Source: Candidatus Bathyarchaeia archaeon
GTDB lineage: Archaea; Thermoproteota; Bathyarchaeia; TCS64
Assembly: GCA_050014495.1 (NCBI GenBank)
Contig: JBEKDF010000016.1
Coordinates: forward strand, 1 to 63,324
Length of the DNA: 63,324 nucleotides
Reading direction: 5' to 3'
A program made the position numbers and the translations under genes. Under the pieces are notes generated by a model. It did not search any database. It was not told where the DNA came from and saw nothing but the letters and a program-made list of their open reading frames with translations. This document shows, in pieces, positions 1 to 39,735 of this stretch; within the stretch, counting starts at the first letter, position 1, and the number at the start of each line of letters is the position of its first letter.

Positions 1-1
1 G

Positions 2-106
2 TACAAGGAATCTGGTCCATACAAGGAGATCGTTAAGAGCCTATCAGAGTACGCGGATTTGAAGAAGCCCATCGTGGACGAGGTCTTCGACTGCCTGGAA
101 GTGTAG
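2..106 (+). CDS. 3' end of a CDS cut by the window edge (...YKESGPYKEIVKSLSEYADLKKPIVDEVFDCLEV*)
   Basis: Open frame from nt 2 to TAG at 104-106 with protein-like composition, followed by a T-tract. Confidence 0.55.
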   Translation, partial: YKESGPYKEIVKSLSEYADLKKPIVDEVFDCLEV

Positions 107-187
107 CATGGTCTTATTCACACTTTTTTCTATGCTCGTCGTTAGCTCTTATCATGTCGGCGATATCAAGGTAGCATGTATGGGAGC

Positions 188-210
188 TAGCCTTATCCTG
201 AGTCCCACCT
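188..210 (+). repeat. Dispersed intergenic repeat copy (TAGCCTTATCCTGAGTCCCACCT)
   Basis: Matches consensus TAGYCTTATCCTCACTTCCACCTGA with 3 mismatches; more degenerate copies at 249 and 352. Confidence 0.75.
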
Positions 211-410
211 TCTCCTTAAGAAAATCTTAACCCAAATTCACTTTGGCATAAGCCTTATCTTAACTTGCATTCGACAACCCAAACGCATTTGTACCTGAAT
301 TCCTTGAACTGTTAAAATAAATCTATCCATAATGGATATCCTAACGTGCAATAATCTTATCAACTGCGCGTTTGCGTTTCCGCGTCTCCAATTAACTTTG
401 GGCATGTTAA

Positions 411-1679
411 ATGATATATAGGAATTTAACCATAGCCAGATTTCGGGATAGGGTTGAATTCATGAACTATTCCCGCAGAGACAAAGCTATACTACGTGGG
501 CTCGGGGCAAAGATCGCTGAGATAGCGTCACTTCCCATAAACGAGCAGCGTAGAGAGATGCATAATAAAACCAACAACCTGGAAAAAACGAAGCCCACCG
601 TCCACATTTACGAGGTTCCTTGGCATGAAATGGACGTCAACGACGAGCTGAAACTGGCGACGCGGGATCCATTCTGCCAAAGAATAGAGACAGATCTGAA
701 GCGCACATTGTACATGTGGAGGCATATGCAGGCGGATATGGTGGTTGAGCCTACGGTCGTGCAGCCACTCATAATTAATGATACGGGGTTCGGCATCACT
801 GAGGATGTCACCGTCGCCAAGACTGATGAGAGAAGTGACATCGTATCACGCCACTTTCACATCCAGATAAAGAATGACGAGGACATAGAGAAGATCAAGA
901 TGCCGGTGGTCACCTTCGAGAGGGAAAAAACCGAGGAGGAGTACCAGACACGTTGCGAGATCTTCGACAAGGTCCTGAACGTGGAAAAGCGTGGAATGCC
1001 CCTCGAAAAGAAGATCTACCCCTGGAAAAGCACTGAGACCGAGACCTCCTTCTGGTTCACGCCATGGGACGACATTGTCCGATGGACGGGAGTACAAGAA
1101 ATATTGGTGGATATGTTTCGTAGACCCAAATATGTGCATTGCATAATCGAGAGAACAGTCGACGCCTGGCTCAGTCGACTGGAGCAATATGAGAGGCTAG
1201 GTGTGTTGAAGGGGGATCCAATGGAGTTCTGGGGAATTGGGGCAGCCCAGATCTTCTCAGTTTGTTCACCGGTGATGCATGAGGAGTTTGCGTTGAAACA
1301 TGAGGCTCGCTGGTTCAGCAAGTTTGGGCGCAACTTCTATGGTTGTTGTGAGCCACTTGACGAGAAAGTTGACATAGTTAAGAAAAACATCCCGAGACTC
1401 CGGAAGATATCAATGAGTGCATGGGTGAACTTCGATAAGGCGGTTGAAAAGGTCGGGGACGAGATGGTGTTTGCTTGGAAACCTAGCCCAGCGGTTCTTG
1501 CAGCGCCGATATGGGATCCAGAGGGGGTCCAGAGGGACATGGAGGAGAAGATGGAGAAGGCCCGGAACTGCATTGTCGAGATACACATGAAGGATATTAG
1601 CACTGTTAGGTTTCAACCTCAACGCCTCTGGGATTGGTCACAGATAGCCTCTAGAGTCACTCAGAAATATCCGGTGTAA
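411..1679 (+). CDS. Uroporphyrinogen decarboxylase-like / MtaA-CmuA-superfamily TIM-barrel protein (start probably ATG 462)
   Basis: 422-aa ORF with WTGVQEILVDM...P, SPVMHEEF, YGCCEPLD, LRKISMS, WKPSP motifs typical of URO-D-like proteins. Confidence 0.7.
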   Translation: MIYRNLTIARFRDRVEFMNYSRRDKAILRGLGAKIAEIASLPINEQRREMHNKTNNLEKTKPTVHIYEVPWHEMDVNDELKLATRDPFCQRIETDLKRTLYMWRHMQADMVVEPTVVQPLIINDTGFGITEDVTVAKTDERSDIVSRHFHIQIKNDEDIEKIKMPVVTFEREKTEEEYQTRCEIFDKVLNVEKRGMPLEKKIYPWKSTETETSFWFTPWDDIVRWTGVQEILVDMFRRPKYVHCIIERTVDAWLSRLEQYERLGVLKGDPMEFWGIGAAQIFSVCSPVMHEEFALKHEARWFSKFGRNFYGCCEPLDEKVDIVKKNIPRLRKISMSAWVNFDKAVEKVGDEMVFAWKPSPAVLAAPIWDPEGVQRDMEEKMEKARNCIVEIHMKDISTVRFQPQRLWDWSQIASRVTQKYPV

Positions 1680-1712
1680 TCGTCTATTGAGATGCTCGTG
1701 CGCATAGACGAA

Positions 1713-1736
1713 TAGTCTCATCCTCACTTCCACCTT
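1713..1736 (+). repeat. Dispersed intergenic repeat copy
   Basis: TAGTCTCATCCTCACTTCCACCTT; preceded by hairpin CGTCTAT...ATAGACG (1681-1710); partial inverted copy at ~1757-1771. Confidence 0.85.
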
Positions 1737-1919
1737 ATACTCATGGAAAAAATTATGTGAGGGATAAAATTAAGGAGAAGCCTTCATAACTTGAGCCAAG
1801 TTAGTGAAAAATAGATAAGGAGGCATGGGGGGTCAGTAATTAAAGATCTAAACGACAAAGACTCTGAAGCACGCGCATTTACACCCTTCACAGAGCTACC
1901 TAAGGTCGGGAAGATCGCT

Positions 1920-2810
1920 ATGATCATGATCCTGCTCGGCTGGGGCCTCTCCGCACTCATCGCCGGCATTAGGTACTTACTCATAAACATCCCCGGCCGC
2001 ATACCCCTGCTATACTCCCCACCGATAGCTAGAGCGTTTCTCAGTGAGATACTATACTTTCCCACCGGCGTAGCGATCTTGGTCCTCGTAATAGACTATT
2101 TGGCCACGGGGAGGGTGTTGAGGAGACATAAGATCGAGCTGATGATAGCCGTTTTACTGGGTTCGCTTCTACGCCTAGCCAACGCCTTGTTTGATCTAAT
2201 AGTATGGCTCCAAGGAGGATTAACTCTGAGCCGCATATCCATGTGGGCGAGCTGGCCACCCAGTATCGTAGACTCCCTCGTCGAAGGGAGCATCGTCGTT
2301 ATCCTAGGCACACTCTGCATCTACATTGCGTACCGTGTACTCACGGACAGGGAGCTGTTAGTAAAGTGGACGTTTCTGCTACTGTCCGCCTACTTTCTCT
2401 GGTTCGCGTTTGACATCCTTTACATACAATTAGAGGCCGGCGAGCCACTTTTAGTAGTGCCTTTAATCGAGCTGCTATCTTATGCTATGTTACTAATAGC
2501 GAACGCTGCCATCGGAATCTTCCTTCTCGGTGTATCGCTGAGGCTGAGACGCGGCGGCGGATTTGAGGTCTCTACTCCCATGTATCTCAGGATCGTGTTG
2601 CTGGTCTTCGGGATCGTGGGATTCCTGTATGACGCGGGTTACCTCCTTTCTTCGGGGACCATGAGCTGGGATCTCCCTTGGGTGCTGCTCGTAGGTATCT
2701 TTACCAGAATCGCAATAGCCTTGATGGCGTTTTATCCTCTGAAGTTTGCGGTCAGCGGAACCAGTAGTCCGAGGGAGGTACCACCGACAAGCAATGGTTT
2801 TGGGCTATAG
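1920..2810 (+). CDS. Multi-pass membrane protein, unknown function
   Basis: 296 aa with about 8 hydrophobic segments; frame stays open ~100 nt upstream without an ATG, so the start is uncertain. Confidence 0.75.
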   Translation: MIMILLGWGLSALIAGIRYLLINIPGRIPLLYSPPIARAFLSEILYFPTGVAILVLVIDYLATGRVLRRHKIELMIAVLLGSLLRLANALFDLIVWLQGGLTLSRISMWASWPPSIVDSLVEGSIVVILGTLCIYIAYRVLTDRELLVKWTFLLLSAYFLWFAFDILYIQLEAGEPLLVVPLIELLSYAMLLIANAAIGIFLLGVSLRLRRGGGFEVSTPMYLRIVLLVFGIVGFLYDAGYLLSSGTMSWDLPWVLLVGIFTRIAIALMAFYPLKFAVSGTSSPREVPPTSNGFGL

Positions 2811-2913
2811 TCTTACCCCTTCCACACACACTCGCGCTGTTCTAATTCTTAGTACAACTGTCCTAAAGTATAGCAATAACTACCAAGACAACAACCATTA
2901 ACTGGTAACAATA

Positions 2914-3690
2914 ATGGATAGAAAACAGCGAGCCATCTCAATACTAGCCATCCTTATGGCTATAATATTCGCTGGATCGATCATGATGCACCCAAGCATC
3001 ATCTCACCGGTCCAAGGACAAACTATGCTGACCTCAAGCCCCAGCAATAACACCACTAGCAGCAACCCGAGGACCCTATCATTATCCGGCACAGCCACCG
3101 TATACGCCCAGCCAGATCAGGTTGTTTTTAGTATAGGCGCTTACACCGAGGAGAAGACCGCCTCAGCAGCCATCGACGAAAATGCGGGGATAATGACCGC
3201 GGTGCTCAACGCGATCGAGGCCCAGGGTGTGAAAGTGGAAAACATTTCGACCGCCTACTACACGGTCACCCCCAATTACAGCTACGACGCCAAGATGGTG
3301 ATCAGCTACCAGGTAACAAACATGATGCAGGTCAAGATCTCAGACCTCAGCAAGGTCGGGGTCATCATCGACGCGGCCTCCGCCGCGGGAGCGAACAAGG
3401 TTGACAGCATTAGCTTCGGTCTCAGCGATGCCGCTGCGAACAATCTGAAGCTCAGCGCCTACAAGGCTGCCATTGCCGATGCCAAGGCTAAGGCCTCGGT
3501 GATCACGCAGAATCTCGGGATTAGTATTACTGGCGTGCAGTCCGTCAATGAGAACTATTACTACCCTCAGACTGACTACCTTAAGACAGCGGTTCCTTCT
3601 TCTGGGGCAGCGTCCTCTACGCCGATTCTTCAGGGTAACATCAGTGTCTCTGTGACGCTTAACATCGTCTACCTTATAGGGCCAGTGTAG
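2914..3690 (+). CDS. SIMPL/DUF541 domain secreted protein
   Basis: Signal-like N-terminus, LSLSGTATVYAQPD, IDAASAAGANKVDSISF, AIADAKAKA motifs. Confidence 0.9.
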   Translation: MDRKQRAISILAILMAIIFAGSIMMHPSIISPVQGQTMLTSSPSNNTTSSNPRTLSLSGTATVYAQPDQVVFSIGAYTEEKTASAAIDENAGIMTAVLNAIEAQGVKVENISTAYYTVTPNYSYDAKMVISYQVTNMMQVKISDLSKVGVIIDAASAAGANKVDSISFGLSDAAANNLKLSAYKAAIADAKAKASVITQNLGISITGVQSVNENYYYPQTDYLKTAVPSSGAASSTPILQGNISVSVTLNIVYLIGPV

Positions 3691-3791
3691 TCTTACACCA
3701 TTTACCCCATTTTTTACGTGTGCCCTCTAATGATAAGACCGCATGCTTTGCAGGAGCGCGTTCTCATCCCGAGCTGAAGACATTTACTCAA

Positions 3792-3846
3792 TAGCCTTAT
3801 CCTCACTTCATGCCTACCATTGGGCAGTGACTTATGAATGGTTGAC
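3792..3846 (+). repeat. Repeat copy serving as upstream region of the intact MVD-family gene
   Basis: TAGCCTTATCCTCACTTCA...CAGTGA...ATGGTTGAC. Confidence 0.85.
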
Positions 3847-4383
3847 ATAACAGTATTCCAGGAAGTGTTCTACACCGCGGGCGCCCTCAGTGTAATAGTC
3901 GCCTCAGTATACTACACCATAACACTCAGGGGGAACCAGAGAAACTTCAAACACACACTCGAGACCAGGCAGGCACAGCTCCTCATGGGGCTCTTCCAGG
4001 CCTTCTGGGACAAGGATAACAGCAGGAGCCTAACAAACGTCTTCTCGCAGACCTGGGACACCCCGGACGAGTTCTGGGAACGTCTACGAGATGACACGAA
4101 CCTCTACGCCGACTACTCGCACATGTTGAGGTACTTCGACTCGATCGGGTACCTCGTCAGGAGCGGTTTCCTGGACTCGAGGCAGGTGTACGATATTCTG
4201 GATGGTGGGCGGCCATTCATCTTGATGTGGGGGAAGTATGGGGACTTGATCAGGTCTCGTAGGGTCACGGAGGGGGCTAGCTACGCGGTTAATCTCGAGT
4301 ATATCTACGGTGAGATGATTAGGCTGAGGGGTCTTAATGGGGAGCCCGTAGTGGCTCATCATAGTGGTGAGAAGATCGGCTAG
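3838..4383 (+). CDS. N-terminally membrane-anchored helical protein (DUF4760-like 'MVD...' family)
   Basis: MVDI start, TM helix ending YY, LETRQAQLLM, YFDSIGYLVRSGFLD pattern. Confidence 0.75.
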   Translation: MVDITVFQEVFYTAGALSVIVASVYYTITLRGNQRNFKHTLETRQAQLLMGLFQAFWDKDNSRSLTNVFSQTWDTPDEFWERLRDDTNLYADYSHMLRYFDSIGYLVRSGFLDSRQVYDILDGGRPFILMWGKYGDLIRSRRVTEGASYAVNLEYIYGEMIRLRGLNGEPVVAHHSGEKIG

Positions 4384-4469
4384 TTCGTCGCTGATTTGCT
4401 TGAATCTTATGGCGTGCCCCTATTCCATCCAAATTATCTGATGACAGAGTCATGTACGCTTCGGTTCAA

Positions 4470-4494
4470 TAGCCTTATCCTCACTTCAACCTGA
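4470..4494 (+). repeat. Dispersed intergenic repeat copy
   Basis: TAGCCTTATCCTCACTTCAACCTGA, 1 mismatch to consensus. Confidence 0.9.
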
Positions 4495-4534
4495 TACCTA
4501 TCCTTAAAAGTAAGCGTAGGTTGGACTCTATAGA

Positions 4535-4909
4535 ATGAACGGAATCGTGTACGACACCTCGAAGACCGGATTAGAAGCCGTGCTCAGGGTGTGGCAGCTG
4601 AAGGCCATGCAGGCGCTGTGGAGCAGCCAAGAGGGAGCGAAGAGCTTCACCGTGTGGGAGAAGGTGAATAAGATGCTTGAGGGGGAGACCATCTCCCGAG
4701 CCAGTGTCATCAACTTCCTGGAGGCGATGCGTGAGGCCGGTGTCTTATCTGGTGTAGAGGAGACGGGGAAGGGTGGTTATCACTGGGTCTACTCCGCCGC
4801 TATGGATGAGGCGGGTTTCAAACAGTTTATTGCCAAGACTCTGCTGGAGAGGCTGATGAGGGAGTTCCCTGATGTGATGAGGGGAGTCGTAGAGGCTCTG
4901 GACCTTTAA
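4535..4909 (+). CDS. Winged-HTH transcriptional regulator (BlaI/MecI/CopY-like)
   Basis: ISRASVINFLEAM recognition helix and GKGGYHWVY wing; TATA-like CCTTAAAA at ~4502. Confidence 0.75.
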   Translation: MNGIVYDTSKTGLEAVLRVWQLKAMQALWSSQEGAKSFTVWEKVNKMLEGETISRASVINFLEAMREAGVLSGVEETGKGGYHWVYSAAMDEAGFKQFIAKTLLERLMREFPDVMRGVVEALDL

Positions 4910-4986
4910 ACGTTGGTCTTTCTAAGGGTCGTTGGTTTTCGCGTGGTTCGGTTTTCTTTTCGTGTTCGACTTGTGTGGAGGCTGCA

Positions 4987-5064
4987 TAGCCTTATCCTCA
5001 CTTCCACCTGACTCTAACCAGTGATTCTATGGTTGACCTAGGTGAGATTCAGACCGTGTGCGTG
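4987..5064 (+). pseudogene. Repeat plus truncated MVD-family gene start (MVDLGEIQT, ATG 5029)
   Basis: Full repeat, AGTGA, ATGGTTGACCTAG; similarity appears to end at CGTGTGCGTG (5055-5064); frame stops at 5121. Confidence 0.75.
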
Positions 5065-5094
5065 ATAGGAGTAATTAATAGCGTTATTGTATGT

Positions 5095-5856
5095 TCAACG
5101 GGGAGTCCAACGCACCATTAATGGTTTCCCAAGGAAACCACTCCTAATCGTCGCGTTGCAGACATTCACACCGTTAACATACACCTCAACCAGATTTTCT
5201 CTCCTATTAAAGACAATCGAGAACCTATCCCACTCCTTCAACAACGCGGTGATTAAATAATAATCGGAAAATGGGTAACGTGGAGGCGTCACATTGTAAT
5301 ATGTTAAATCAAGAAGTAATTCGGGCTGAGTATATTGATAATAGCGCCCTATCTGTGTGTTTAGGGAAGCGCTTCCATTCATTATCCAGATATTAATTAA
5401 CGGCCTAGCTTCATTGCTCTGCTTCTCGATCCATGAGACATTGAATTCATCGAAGTCTGTGACACCCGTCAAGGTGACTGTATACATCCCCCTGCGCTCG
5501 CTCGATCTGCTCCAATCCATGGCTAAGCAGTTACCTGATGGGCTGTTCTCGCCACTTACTATCTTCACCATGTCGGGGTCTTCTACATTGGTTTCGTTGA
5601 GTGGTTTGTCGAAACTCTCCTTGTAAATCATTACATTATCCTTTGTTATCTTTATGTCAGAGATGTAGACGTCGTGCGTGGGTTTTAATGTTAGAAGGAG
5701 GACCCCGATCAGTGATACAACTATTATCATGGTTAATATAATTTGAACTCGTGCGGGGATGTGAAAACGTATCGGGGGAGATAACTGTGGCATGGAATTT
5801 TCACTGAACCGGGGACACCAGCCAAGGTACTGCTTCATCGCATCTCGCAGGGTCAT
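5095..5856 (-). CDS. Membrane-anchored protein with N-terminal LGWCP motif (DUF1673-like N-terminus) and beta-rich extracellular domain
   Basis: MKQYLGWCP, single TM helix; start overlaps upstream stop (ATGA). Confidence 0.7.
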   Translation of the reverse strand: MTLRDAMKQYLGWCPRFSENSMPQLSPPIRFHIPARVQIILTMIIVVSLIGVLLLTLKPTHDVYISDIKITKDNVMIYKESFDKPLNETNVEDPDMVKIVSGENSPSGNCLAMDWSRSSERRGMYTVTLTGVTDFDEFNVSWIEKQSNEARPLINIWIMNGSASLNTQIGRYYQYTQPELLLDLTYYNVTPPRYPFSDYYLITALLKEWDRFSIVFNRRENLVEVYVNGVNVCNATIRSGFLGKPLMVRWTPR

Positions 5857-6329
5857 GTCCCCAGCCCCGGTATCAGTTTTGAAAAGATGACTTGCGCCAG
5901 CCTCGACGGTGGGAGCCTCTGCTGATCCTGACCTAGCTCAATACTCCTCTCCTCCGCCTCATCAAGCAGCCTCTCAGCGCAGCGTTTTACGTACCTGCAC
6001 CTGTTGCAGTCGGGTTCCTCGAAGTGCCATGTCTGGACCCCGTGCCTCCTCGAGAAGGTAACTATGACCTTGCTGGAATCGAGGGGCATCCTACCGAGGA
6101 GGATGCCGTTTTTGGCATCAACTCTAATGATCTCAATCGAGCTCGCCTCGGCCGTGTGGCGTAGTGCGCTATCAACCTTTCCTAGCGACACTTTAAGGGC
6201 GTCGTAGACGGCCTGCCGGGTGAACCCGAAGTGCTGGCCGATACGCGCTCTCGACTCACCTCGTCTATTTAGATCCCATATCTCTAGCTGATGAGTTGTG
6301 AGATAAGCTGATGAGAGCATATGATTCAA
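5853..6329 (-). CDS. HTH DNA-binding protein with C-terminal CxxCxxxxxC motif
   Basis: SRARIGQHFGFTRQAVYDAL HTH; CNRCRYVKRC; coupled to the LGWCP gene. Confidence 0.75.
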   Translation of the reverse strand: MNHMLSSAYLTTHQLEIWDLNRRGESRARIGQHFGFTRQAVYDALKVSLGKVDSALRHTAEASSIEIIRVDAKNGILLGRMPLDSSKVIVTFSRRHGVQTWHFEEPDCNRCRYVKRCAERLLDEAEERSIELGQDQQRLPPSRLAQVIFSKLIPGLGT

Positions 6330-6496
6330 AGAAATATCAACTGTAAAGTATAATAGCTTTACGCGTGTGTGTGACGACGACTAAATCCTTATGGCGAAAT
6401 AAGCCTTAATGGGCCAATTTGTACTGATGCGCACGCATTGGTTCAGCTTCTTAAAACCTAGGCACATCAGAAGAGGAGGCGGTTGAGTGAATGTTG

Positions 6497-6931
6497 TTAT
6501 GGATAGAAGTGGACTATCTTTTTCGGCACGACCCTTAACGTGACCTGAGTCTTATCATCGAACTCTGGGTTAAAAGATGACTCCAAATGATATTTACCCC
6601 ACACCCACCGCACATATTTGTTATAGCCCTCCTCCGGCTTAAAGTTAAGATCCGCCAAGCCATAAACTAACGCGTATTTGGACGGTGTATCCCCTTCACC
6701 AGACTTTGATCCCTGCATGAGGAATGAGAGGGACACGTTGCTGTTTCGCTTGATGTTCTCTACTCTTCTGGATTTCTTTATGGATACGAAGTAGAAGACA
6801 TTGTCCTTGTAGTTGTACCATATGGGGGCGGCGTGGATGGTGCCGTCCCTGTTGTGGCTACAGAAGATAGTGGTGTAGGATTCAGTGAATAGGTTCTGTG
6901 TGTCCTCCGGGGTCATCTTGTTGCTGCTCAT
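6497..6931 (-). CDS. Pyridoxamine 5'-phosphate oxidase-like (flavin/F420-binding split barrel) protein
   Basis: NRDGTIHAAPIWY, SRRVENIKRNSNVSL motifs. Confidence 0.85.
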   Translation of the reverse strand: MSSNKMTPEDTQNLFTESYTTIFCSHNRDGTIHAAPIWYNYKDNVFYFVSIKKSRRVENIKRNSNVSLSFLMQGSKSGEGDTPSKYALVYGLADLNFKPEEGYNKYVRWVWGKYHLESSFNPEFDDKTQVTLRVVPKKIVHFYP

Positions 6932-7003
6932 GAAAATTACATCTCTGTATTGCTGACAGGCGACTCAATAATAAAGCGATACCTAAGCGCACGCCTTTCA
7001 GAA

Positions 7004-7525
7004 TCACCATTTCTCGGCATGCACACGTTCTTCTTTATACCTATTAGCTGGTGGCTTCTCCTCATCAGGAACCCCAACTGCGACAACGCACATGGGGATA
7101 GTTTGCTTTGGCATCCCCAGCAACTCCCTAATCTTCCACACCCTATCGTCAAGCGGATAAACCCCACACCAGGTAGCACCCTAACCCATGGCATACGCAG
7201 CTAGCAGTAGATTCTCGGTGGCAGCGGAGCAGTCCTGAACCCAGTAACCTGGGCAGGTTTGAAGCTCAGGGTCGGCACACACGATTATTGCTACCGATGC
7301 CTTCGGAAGCATATTCGTGTAGGGATGTGCCTCAATTATCTTACTGAATGTGTCCTTATTCTTCACAACTATGTAGTGCCAGGGTTGCTGGTTGCAGGCT
7401 GATGGAGCCGCCATCGCTGCTTCGAGGAGCAACTTGATGTCCTTATCGGGAATTGCTTCACCAGTGAACTTCCTTATGCTTCTTCTACCGAGAATAACTT
7501 GCATCGCATCCAACTTGATCGACAC
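7004..7525 (-). pseudogene. Nitroreductase family gene interrupted by in-frame TAG at 7181-7183
   Basis: RRSIRKF, APSACNQQPW, QDCSAATENLLLAAYAMG*GATWCGVYP...NRYKEERVHAEKW; frame continues 58 codons to TGA at 7004-7006. Confidence 0.85.
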
Positions 7526-7574
7526 TCGTGTTGTTGTAACGAATAAATAAATAATCTCGCGAACTAAACCTCGA

Positions 7575-7746
7575 TAATCTTATCCTCACTACCACCTGAC
7601 TGTAATCAGTGATTGTATGGTTGACCTAGTGGTTCTTCAATCAGCTTCCTATGCGGCAACTACCATAGGAGTATGCGTAGCAGCATTCTACTACGTCATG
7701 ACCCTGCGATCCCAGCAGAACAACATGAAAGCGACGCTGCGCGCAT
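7575..7746 (+). pseudogene. Repeat plus 5' fragment of an MVD-family gene (ATG 7617)
   Basis: MVDLVVLQSASYAATTIGVCVAAFYYVMTLRSQQNNMKATL aligns with the N-terminus of 3838..4383, then diverges at TGCGCGCAT (7738-7746). Confidence 0.8.
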
Positions 7747-7819
7747 CGAGCGCATCTCTAGCTATCACCAGCGTGGCAGAGTTATTATTGAGAAACATCA
7801 AAAGATTATAGGAAGAGCC

Positions 7820-8461
7820 ATGAAGGATAAACCCCCTGCGGATCTGCAACCTATCGAACTCCTCAAACCGATATTCGACCAAGCAACAACGGTATTCGAA
7901 GCCTTGAAGATGAGAAAGACCATACGCTCCTTCAGCCAGAGGGAAATCCCACTGCAGCTCCTGTCAGACATCCTCTGGGCGGCACAGGGAGTCAACCGAG
8001 GTAAGGGGCCCTTCGATGGACCAGGGCGAACCGCCGGCTCAGCGAGCAACTCCCAGGAGATCCTCATCTACGTCACCCGGGAGGAGGGAACATACTTGTA
8101 TGAGCCAGACTCCTACAAACTAACCCCTGTAGCAGATGGTGACTACCGCCCATTGGCGATTGGCCCCAGGCAGAGAAAGTCCGGTTCAGTAGCCGCAATC
8201 CGACTGATCTACGTTGTTGATCTAGACAAGTTCAAGACCGCCGGATTCCCCGAGCCGGGGCTCTACGACCCTGAGATCCAGAAATCCTACTACTTCGTGG
8301 ACACTGGCCTCATCGCCCAAAACGTCTACCTGGCAGCCTCAGCGCTGGGTCTGGTTTCATGGTTCCACAACTGCAACAAATCGGAGCTGGTGAAGGTGCT
8401 TAAGCTGACGTCACAGCAGAGGCCGCTATTTGGACATACCGTCGGTTATTCAGAAGATTAA
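7820..8461 (+). CDS. Nitroreductase / SagB-like FMN-binding oxidoreductase
   Basis: ALKMRKTIRSF, LWAAQGVNR, RTAGSASNSQE, DTGLIAQNVYL; ATG 7820 preferred over 7673, which lies inside the MVD stub. Confidence 0.88.
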   Translation: MKDKPPADLQPIELLKPIFDQATTVFEALKMRKTIRSFSQREIPLQLLSDILWAAQGVNRGKGPFDGPGRTAGSASNSQEILIYVTREEGTYLYEPDSYKLTPVADGDYRPLAIGPRQRKSGSVAAIRLIYVVDLDKFKTAGFPEPGLYDPEIQKSYYFVDTGLIAQNVYLAASALGLVSWFHNCNKSELVKVLKLTSQQRPLFGHTVGYSED

Positions 8462-8521
8462 GGAGGTGCGTGCATAAATTAAGCTAGGCATCACTCAGTA
8501 ATCTCGCCACTTACTGCACAC

Positions 8522-8546
8522 ATGTCTTATCCTCACTTCCACCTGA
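8522..8546 (+). repeat. Dispersed repeat copy closing the accessory array
   Basis: ATGTCTTATCCTCACTTCCACCTGA with no ORF directly downstream. Confidence 0.9.
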
Positions 8547-8792
8547 TTGTGTGACCTGAAAACGAGTTACTCATGGTTATTCCTGTGGCTTATCAGAGTT
8601 ACACTGGGATAAATGTAAAGTAATCATTAGCTCGTGCAGATATGATAGTTTTATCTATCACATTTCTACCCTAATGGGAGGAGTTGAGTAAACGCCTTGA
8701 GATCTAGTAGAAATACGCCACCAAACATGTCACTAGGTGTAACTATTATGTCTCGGGTGTTCGACTAACAAGAAGAAATCGGTGTTCGTCTC

Positions 8793-39557: not shown

Positions 39558-39660
39558 TTAGAAGTTTTCATAGACGCACGCGTACGAGTTAAACTGGAGG
39601 ACAAATAGGTCAACCATTATAATCACTGATTAGAGTCAGGTGGAAGTGAGGATAAGACTA
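39558..39660 (-). pseudogene. Repeat plus MVD-family stub (MVDLFVLQFNSYA...), minus strand
   Basis: Reverse complement reads TAGTCTTATCCTCACTTCCACCTGACTCTAATCAGTGATTATAATGGTTGACCTA; ATG 39617, stop at 39558. Confidence 0.85.
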
Positions 39661-39735
39661 TTGAATGCTAGAGAGAATCACTCGAGGTCAACTTCGTGAG
39701 CCTTGAAAGCCTATCTCGGGTACATTTAAAAAGAA

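Follow-up and report, generated by a model that had tools for sequence, protein, structure and literature searches.

The question raised by this locus is why one short sequence recurs, in a single orientation, between functionally unrelated genes. In a 63,324-nucleotide stretch of DNA from a Bathyarchaeia archaeon (contig JBEKDF010000016.1; hereafter the window), an element of about 25 bp punctuates an array of accessory genes, and an initial annotation had taken it for a possible reusable joint for gene capture, integron-like in layout and acting either as a recombinase site or as a homology anchor. Searches of the whole host genome (G000; 3.1 Mb, 92 contigs, 96% complete) and of related genomes gave an answer in two parts. 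One is that the element forms the conserved module ahead of a much expanded family of DUF4760-like genes; the other, a new observation in this work, is that its core is also present between simple-repeat tips. From sequence comparison, the probability that its first 13 bp are the target of polymerase-less, casposon-like elements with a stand-alone Cas1 was put at roughly 70%, and the copies are likely to be reusable joints where accessory genes accumulate and are reshuffled.

The element and the genes behind it

The system is real, genome-wide and of genus-level distribution, and the repeat was confirmed far beyond the window. Its core is the first 13 bp, C(C/A/T)ATAGYCTTATC, which begin 3 nt upstream of the consensus originally given and are followed by a right flank. 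With up to three mismatches, the pattern was found at 1713 (2 mismatches), 4470 (1), 4987 (0), 7575 (2), 8522 (2) and, on the minus strand, 39636-39660 (0), compared with no match in 100 shuffles; those at 188 and 3792, with five mismatches each, are genuine as well. The annotated positions were thus right, as were the continuation of four copies (3792, 4987, 7575 and 39660) into AGTGA...ATGGTTGAC and the co-orientation within the array, where every copy lies on the plus strand. Among the degenerate cores listed at the same time, those at 249, 352 and 2808 proved to be part of the system and those at 110 and 3688 are plausible, while those at 143, 4403 and 6384-6399 were too weak to call. In the host genome, 179 copies were present at up to five mismatches (none in a shuffled genome), and a weight-matrix scan, as had been suggested, returned 203 copies compared with one in reversed DNA. 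Among the 179, neighbouring copies within 5 kb of each other shared the same direction in 114 cases and were opposed in 7, the spacing from copy to copy peaked at 550-680 bp, and 159 lay less than 10 kb from a contig end; the copies are located in variable islands. At up to two mismatches, the pattern occurred in 10 of 17 same-genus genomes and in none of 43 more distant genomes.

About 86 full-length DUF4760-like genes were found in the host genome. Of these, 67 follow a scored element and have an intact reading frame, and in 62 of the 67 the distance from core to start codon is 37-40 nt. Median protein identity within the family is 29%, and the element differs from its consensus at about 2 of 25 bases. 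Of 62 aligned members, 61 matched DUF4760 (PF15956) at E<=0.01, the lowest value being 3.7e-16; the member in the window scored below the curated cut-off. Other genera have module variants of their own in the same position before the gene. A match resembling a B recognition element and TATA box (BRE/TATA-like) stands in the same register in 183 of 203 copies, with a weak score, and the module may serve as the promoter of the DUF4760-like genes. Copies followed by a leader stub carried 1.79 mismatches on average, those ahead of an intact gene 1.99, and those without a family remnant 2.88. Similarity to the family was lost within 80 nt in 87 of the 102 gene-less copies, and a GC-alternating tract was found at the junction in 30 of these 102, compared with 31 of 440 control positions.

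The DUF4760-like genes (some 85 paralogs and the window gene at 3838-4383) are mosaics whose 5' modules and bodies have been exchanged; the unit at C72:4180 combines the 5' end of one relative with the body of another. The structure predicted for the family was confident (pLDDT 92), and a Foldseek search with this model gave no match at E<=0.001, the best VIA Z (8.5) being at noise level for helical proteins. At that score, a weak and non-significant likeness to the helical domains of plant EDS1/PAD4 was seen. PADLOC gave no match for 62 family members, and one weak viral relative was found.

Inverted-repeat units and stand-alone Cas1

The core was found precisely joined to inverted-repeat tips, the units bounded by these tips lay between direct 13-bp repeats, and Cas1 genes were present in or beside such units. 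At sites of this second kind, the core is flanked by TTTGGGTTTGGGG and CCCCAAACCCAAA, or by GTGTGTG and CACACAC; the tips are simple repeats of GGGTTT or GT, and all four arm combinations occurred. The 266 sites comprised 176 plain sites, 17 with a tip on the left, 15 with a tip on the right, 16 with tips on both sides and 42 others, whereas reversed DNA gave 11 hits with none in the four arm classes. The tips are the terminal inverted repeats of units of 0.6-6 kb. A 3,469-bp unit (C34:18067-21549) has inverted repeats of 108-115 bp running from the first base after the core and lies between cores that match at 11 of 13 positions, a unit in the relative G002 has inverted repeats of ~58 bp and cores matching at 13 of 13, and the tips of Cas1-bearing units measure 10-16 bp. 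Since the inverted repeat of the C34 unit starts directly after the core, the duplication is 13 bp, with 14 bp possible because the flank also begins with C. A stretch of 12-13 shared bases is too short for ordinary homologous recombination, which implies a site-specific step. The reverse complement of the right flank was never seen to the left of the core (0 of 266 sites), so the flank belongs to the target and was rejected as a symmetrical tip. In several tip-bounded units the right-hand core runs on into a flank of the window type and a DUF4760 leader, which ties the originally annotated element to the target. Cores starting with CAA accounted for 2 of 17 and 1 of 19 of those with a tip on the right, compared with 91 of 172 and 48 of 98 plain cores.

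Other readings of these sites were also considered. The core plus CCCC was rejected as a transposon tip, because the cores on either side of Cas1 units are direct and not inverted repeats, and because the 115-bp inverted repeat begins after the core; a tRNA-mimic landing pad was excluded by the lack of a T-arm motif at 238 and 160 sites; and de novo addition of tips to arbitrary DNA was weakened, one end type forming a family of related sequences that share a long G-poor tract. The tips are telomere-like, consisting either of (GT)n or of (GGGTTT)n extended by 0-3 further units, at times mixed on one unit (for example, C80:565 and C85:63 in the host genome, and loci L198 and L204), and one end type has an almost G-free strand of ~80 nt. 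A repeated sequence with the core-like TAACCTTATCT was noted at C17:58807, C68:83, C69:85, C89:2875 and C8:84100 of the host genome; one copy lies just upstream of an IS110-family gene, and the sequence is probably the end of an insertion sequence (IS).

Unbiased clustering of the reading frames near 66 tip sites returned the DUF4760 family, Cas1 and cargo, with Cas1 as the sole recurring mobility gene. The host genome has six Cas1 matches by Pfam and 11 loci by tblastn, and a tip site is present within 2.5 kb of 6 of the latter, compared with 0.7 expected (maximum of 5 in 2,000 draws). Within the same distance, none of 13 tyrosine recombinases and none of 10 IS transposases was found, and the genome contained no serine recombinase, reverse transcriptase, Cas2 or CRISPR array. 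The co-occurring tyrosine or serine recombinase that had been suggested as a search target did not turn up at the tip sites, and both types, together with reverse transcriptase, were rejected as the enzyme. By unit class, Cas1 pieces were found in 5 of 22 tip-to-tip, 2 of 20 tip-to-plain, 2 of 10 unclassed, 0 of 177 flank-to-plain and 0 of 23 flank-to-tip units from the host genome and fetched relative loci; as the latter were partly picked for Cas1 or tip sites, only the proximity test in the host genome is unbiased. Three intact Cas1 genes in G016 lie between direct cores (matching at 13/13, 11/13 and 11/13 positions); relative to the core, both gene orientations occur. A broken Cas1 in G012 lies in a similar unit, and G014 also has a full-length Cas1. 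This Cas1 was matched in 10 of 17 same-genus genomes, in one of them by a distant CRISPR-type copy and a fragment. The catalytic motifs IEG, GFLH and DFQE align with solved Cas1 structures, the best PDB matches being 4N06 (E 9e-18) and 6OPM (E 7.5e-13), the latter presumably the M. mazei casposase.

Small conserved genes beside Cas1 in relatives (L206:11293-11904, L201:6732-8339, L200:11556-12416) encode a winged-helix protein, an 'RDxxGRF' protein and a protein of ~290 aa without a Pfam match; none of them was found in the host genome. Among the cargo carried by Cas1 units or lying next to them are a weak match to the Shedu SduA C-terminus and a RelA/SpoT-domain protein (L201:5605-6288; L197:8583-9323), both possibly of a defence type.

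Judged by these sequences, Cas1 is proposed to catalyse integration in this system. The stand-alone enzyme would insert tip-bearing units at the core, thereby duplicating it, and we infer that it performs the joining with a preference for cores starting with CC, CT or TC. Each DUF4760 unit would bring a new landing site, so that expansion of the family would multiply the targets, and the repeated module of ~140 bp (core, flank, leader and first codons) would allow homology-driven duplication, deletion and reordering of units. The island in the window would represent a late state, with mostly tip-less sites, stubs cut at GC tracts, and cargo brought from elsewhere.

Several observations weigh against this model. 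The window has no intact tip pair, and for 5 of the 11 Cas1 loci no tip site was called at a distance of up to 2.5 kb. The near-complete Cas1 of the host genome has a stop just before the first predicted strand and may be truncated, and G010 (82% complete) has homogeneous tandem variant modules with no Cas1 match. The two cores on either side of tip-to-tip units agreed only modestly with each other (relatives: n=16, p=0.03; host genome: n=6, p=0.23). The median TATA match was 4.1, compared with about 10 for tRNA promoters and a 90th percentile of 4.5 in random DNA. The contigs of eight sequencing runs gave no credible excision joint, candidates being short-sided or explained by paralogs, which informs neither way. 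The inferred 3' tips end in G-runs, whereas TCCCC is given as the minimal substrate of the A. boonei enzyme (PMC6614799). No polymerase B was found near any Cas1 or among 19 neighbour proteins, PolB occurring solely on two Cas1-free contigs; a model of protein-primed PolB was uninformative, as it gave no match even in control genomes. The system resembles a casposon target array in the way it works but, with no polymerase found, was classed as a casposon-like variant.

CRISPR spacer acquisition is proposed to descend from casposons. In the present system, a polymerase-less relative of casposons appears to use a target with hundreds of copies before one variable gene family, and gene-scale repeat arrays have apparently been built in an abundant archaeal lineage. 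Because the target measures 13 bp, the ends are very short and relatives have intact enzymes, the transposon-to-CRISPR question and the possible use as a compact site-specific insertion tool become directly testable. The comparison with casposons drew on published descriptions (PMC6614799, PMC4779613, PMC5137440, PMC8464041, PMC4046053, PMC6977970, PMC10359463). Family 1 casposons (Ca. Nitrosopumilus koreensis; PMC8464041, PMC4046053) likewise have terminal inverted repeats, a stand-alone Cas1 that is compact and lacks a fused C-terminal domain, and a 13-bp target duplication, the last described for a casposase (PMC8464041). They differ in that no polymerase B was found here, the tips are short simple repeats, most units have no Cas1, and the target is a gene-upstream module of ~200 copies instead of a single site. 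Family 2 casposons (A. boonei, M. mazei; PMC5137440, PMC6614799, PMC4779613, PMC10359463) share site-specific insertion with an apparent need for C or CC at the start of the target (CC being required at the start of the duplicated site; PMC6614799) and tandem stacking separated by one duplicated site, which was predicted at duplicated targets and seen as pairs in Methanosarcina (PMC4779613, PMC5137440). In contrast to them, there is no tRNA targeting here (no T-arm motif at 398 sites), no C-terminal helix-turn-helix and no polymerase, and the 3' tips are G-rich, not C-rich. CRISPR adaptation by Cas1-Cas2 likewise gives direct repeats by repeated insertion, and a 16-bp repeat-spacer-repeat mini-unit exists here, but the inserts in this system are whole genes (0.5-6 kb) and neither Cas2 nor an array is present. 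A literature search, judged by titles and the starts of abstracts, found no publication describing this system.

Breakpoints at the element and competing explanations

Ends of duplicated segments were far commoner at the element than elsewhere. Whole units of 530-570 bp are duplicated at 93-98% identity and end at element positions 21-25; other ends lie at about +29, +50, +60, +72-84, +78 and +140, within the leader and first codons. Inside the element, three duplicated pairs switch at positions 10-12, and two share variants up to position 16. The scatter of these switch points over the repeated ~140-bp module suggests homology-driven shuffling and not one fixed crossover; a fixed crossover at the right end of the element was excluded by it. 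With duplicated cassettes starting or ending at the element, and the core forming the precise junction of inverted-repeat units, the idea of a reusable joint for gene capture held up. The integron-like layout did so in part: as in integrons, archaeal ones included, co-oriented repeats stand between unrelated, reshuffled genes and upstream stop codons often fall within the site, and the sequence is indeed not attC-like. However, in contrast to integrons, there is no IntI, no attC core or hairpin and no single fixed crossover point, cargo lies in both orientations, and the island borders are not element copies. As to recombinase site or homology anchor, both seem to operate, the associated enzyme being stand-alone Cas1 in place of a tyrosine or serine recombinase.

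An unlikely, though not negligible, alternative is that a domesticated stand-alone Cas1 runs the whole array as integron-like cassettes, the ~200 pads being both insertion targets and cut sites, so that tip-less cassettes are excised by cutting two direct cores and then re-inserted. Such an array would be a natural gene-sized forerunner of CRISPR arrays. Excision of the M. mazei casposon leaves one empty target site, for which a staggered target cut and a circle are proposed (PMC10359463). Here, 83 of 177 tip-less units have no DUF4760 gene, non-family cassettes have duplicates that start or stop at the element, where homology is just ~25 bp, and the divergence of three duplicated pairs at positions 10-12 coincides with the right border of the core. 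A fixed core crossover is contradicted, however, by the flank variants (positions 12-25), which travel with upstream DNA in 14 of 88 cases and with downstream DNA in 5 of 98; many switches fall inside coding sequence, cores around tip-less units resembled each other no more than randomly paired ones did (p=0.86 and 0.58), and neither circles nor excision joints were seen in the contigs of the eight runs.

It is highly improbable that the core is a site for a tyrosine recombinase (integron, Xer/pdif or phage-type att). Four of the 13 such recombinases in the genome lie within 2.5 kb of some site, and the four arm combinations recall attL/attR, but none of the 13 is near a tip site, five are at tRNA genes, and none occurs in the large G016 array. 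Pairs resembling attC cores were found at 6 of 203 sites and 1 of 186 controls, with no hairpin (z ~0) and no Rfam match. An 11-6-11 palindrome in alternating orientation, the mark of Xer/dif, is at odds with the lack of a left arm in 176 plain sites and with the predominance of same-direction neighbours (114 versus 7). No serine recombinase was found. Just as improbable is an ordinary IS transposase as the source of the 13-bp duplication, with Cas1 as a passenger: IS5-like transposases do occur in the same islands, once within a Cas1 unit, but none of the 10 loci lies within 2.5 kb of any site and no transposase family recurs near tip sites. Least credible is the ordinary shared promoter or regulator site with no breakpoint role, which the initial annotation had itself raised as a counter-explanation and which would fit the fixed distance to the start codon and the lineage-specific variants in other genera, since the element is equally conserved where the gene is lost, the core is precisely joined to inverted repeats, and breakpoints pile up at the element.

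The island in the window and at the same locus in relatives

The end of contig C21 overlaps the start of the window by 25 nt, and the island is therefore complete, spanning ~11.1 kb from a DHH phosphoesterase gene to an energy-coupling factor (ECF) transporter (Table 1). The completed island has no recombinase, no IntI-type integrase and no Cas1, in line with the remark that no recombinase was in view. It consists mainly of landing sites without tips; tips in the window are confined to 2796-2831 and the mini-unit at 222-259, and the arrival of the island cargo is thus a matter of deduction.

Table 1. Positions of the island features and of the distant element copy in the window
Position	Strand	Feature	Basis or remark
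1..106	+	3' end of 97-aa cargo gene	starts on C21 behind another element copy
185..212	+	element copy: core 185-197 and right flank variant CTGAGTCCCACC	
222..259	+	mini-unit: ~16-bp CCAAA-N5-TTTGG inverted repeat between two degenerate cores	12 genome copies
349..361	+	bare 13-bp core, then GC-alternating junction tract	
411..1679	+	cargo gene, 422 aa, without Pfam match	open reading frame and Pfam scan
1710..1737	+	element copy, core 1710-1722 and right flank; no DUF4760 gene behind	
1920..2810	+	hydrophobic cargo gene, 296 aa, without Pfam match; stop codon inside next core	
2796..2831	+	decayed tip-type site: core variant at 2805-2817 between a GGTTTTGGG tip and a CACACAC-like tip	
2914..3690	+	cargo gene, SIMPL/DUF541 (E 5.6e-45)	Pfam
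3789..3816	+	element copy ahead of intact DUF4760-like gene	
3838..4383	+	intact DUF4760-like gene, 181 aa; long N-terminal helix and helical domain (predicted)	
4467..4494	+	element copy ahead of regulator cassette	
4535..4909	+	BlaI-like regulator	Pfam
4984..5057	+	perfect element copy, DUF4760 leader and first codons, cut at GC/GT tract	
5095..7525	-	opposite-strand cargo block: two genes without Pfam match, PNPOx-like gene, split nitroreductase	
7572..7736	+	element copy and DUF4760 5' stub, cut at GCGCGC tract	
7673..8461	+	nitroreductase-family cargo gene; true start probably downstream of listed ATG	
8519..8546	+	final island copy of element	~190 bp ahead of relative-shared sequence upstream of ECF transporter
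39636..39663	-	perfect copy and leader stub	interior of 1.43-kb insertion that G002 lacks

Two island segments recur elsewhere in the host genome. The cassette of the 97-aa gene is duplicated on C85 at 96-98% identity, bounded by the element and by the core near 262, and positions 4469-4900 are duplicated on C24 (432 bp, 90%), the segment beginning exactly at the element, which there lies behind a transposon tip. The mini-unit was found in the window and at 11 other places, compared with none in the reversed genome, and the core at 249 is its right core. Its CCAAA-N5-TTTGG hairpin form resembles a one-spacer repeat-spacer-repeat unit, often with a further core 20-35 bp on.

The DHH gene lies within 1.7 kb of the ECF gene in 11 of 12 relatives (adjacent in seven, with small unrelated inserts in four), the contig of the twelfth being too short for this reading. 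The island was absent from all 11 relatives in which both genes are visible, and none of them has an element copy between the two genes. The outer borders of the insertion around 39660, like those of the island, are not element copies, the copy there being internal. G002 has an array of its own at a locus where the host genome has none, and single cassettes are common to both genomes in other contexts.

The nitroreductase gene at 6937-7525 is split by an apparent frameshift near 7190, and a contig from another run differs by a single letter at 7181. GC- or GT-alternating tracts were observed at stub ends and island borders (window 5040-5060, 7736, 6360-6375 and 39200; C21:46811), and also in the same-site inserts of G002, G009 and G016. 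The gap between DHH and ECF is an insertion hotspot, with differing inserts in 5 of 12 readable genomes, the host included (window 8725-8750; L067, L069, L071), and the G002 insert, right before the ECF promoter, is flanked on both sides by a short repeat containing GTGTAA.

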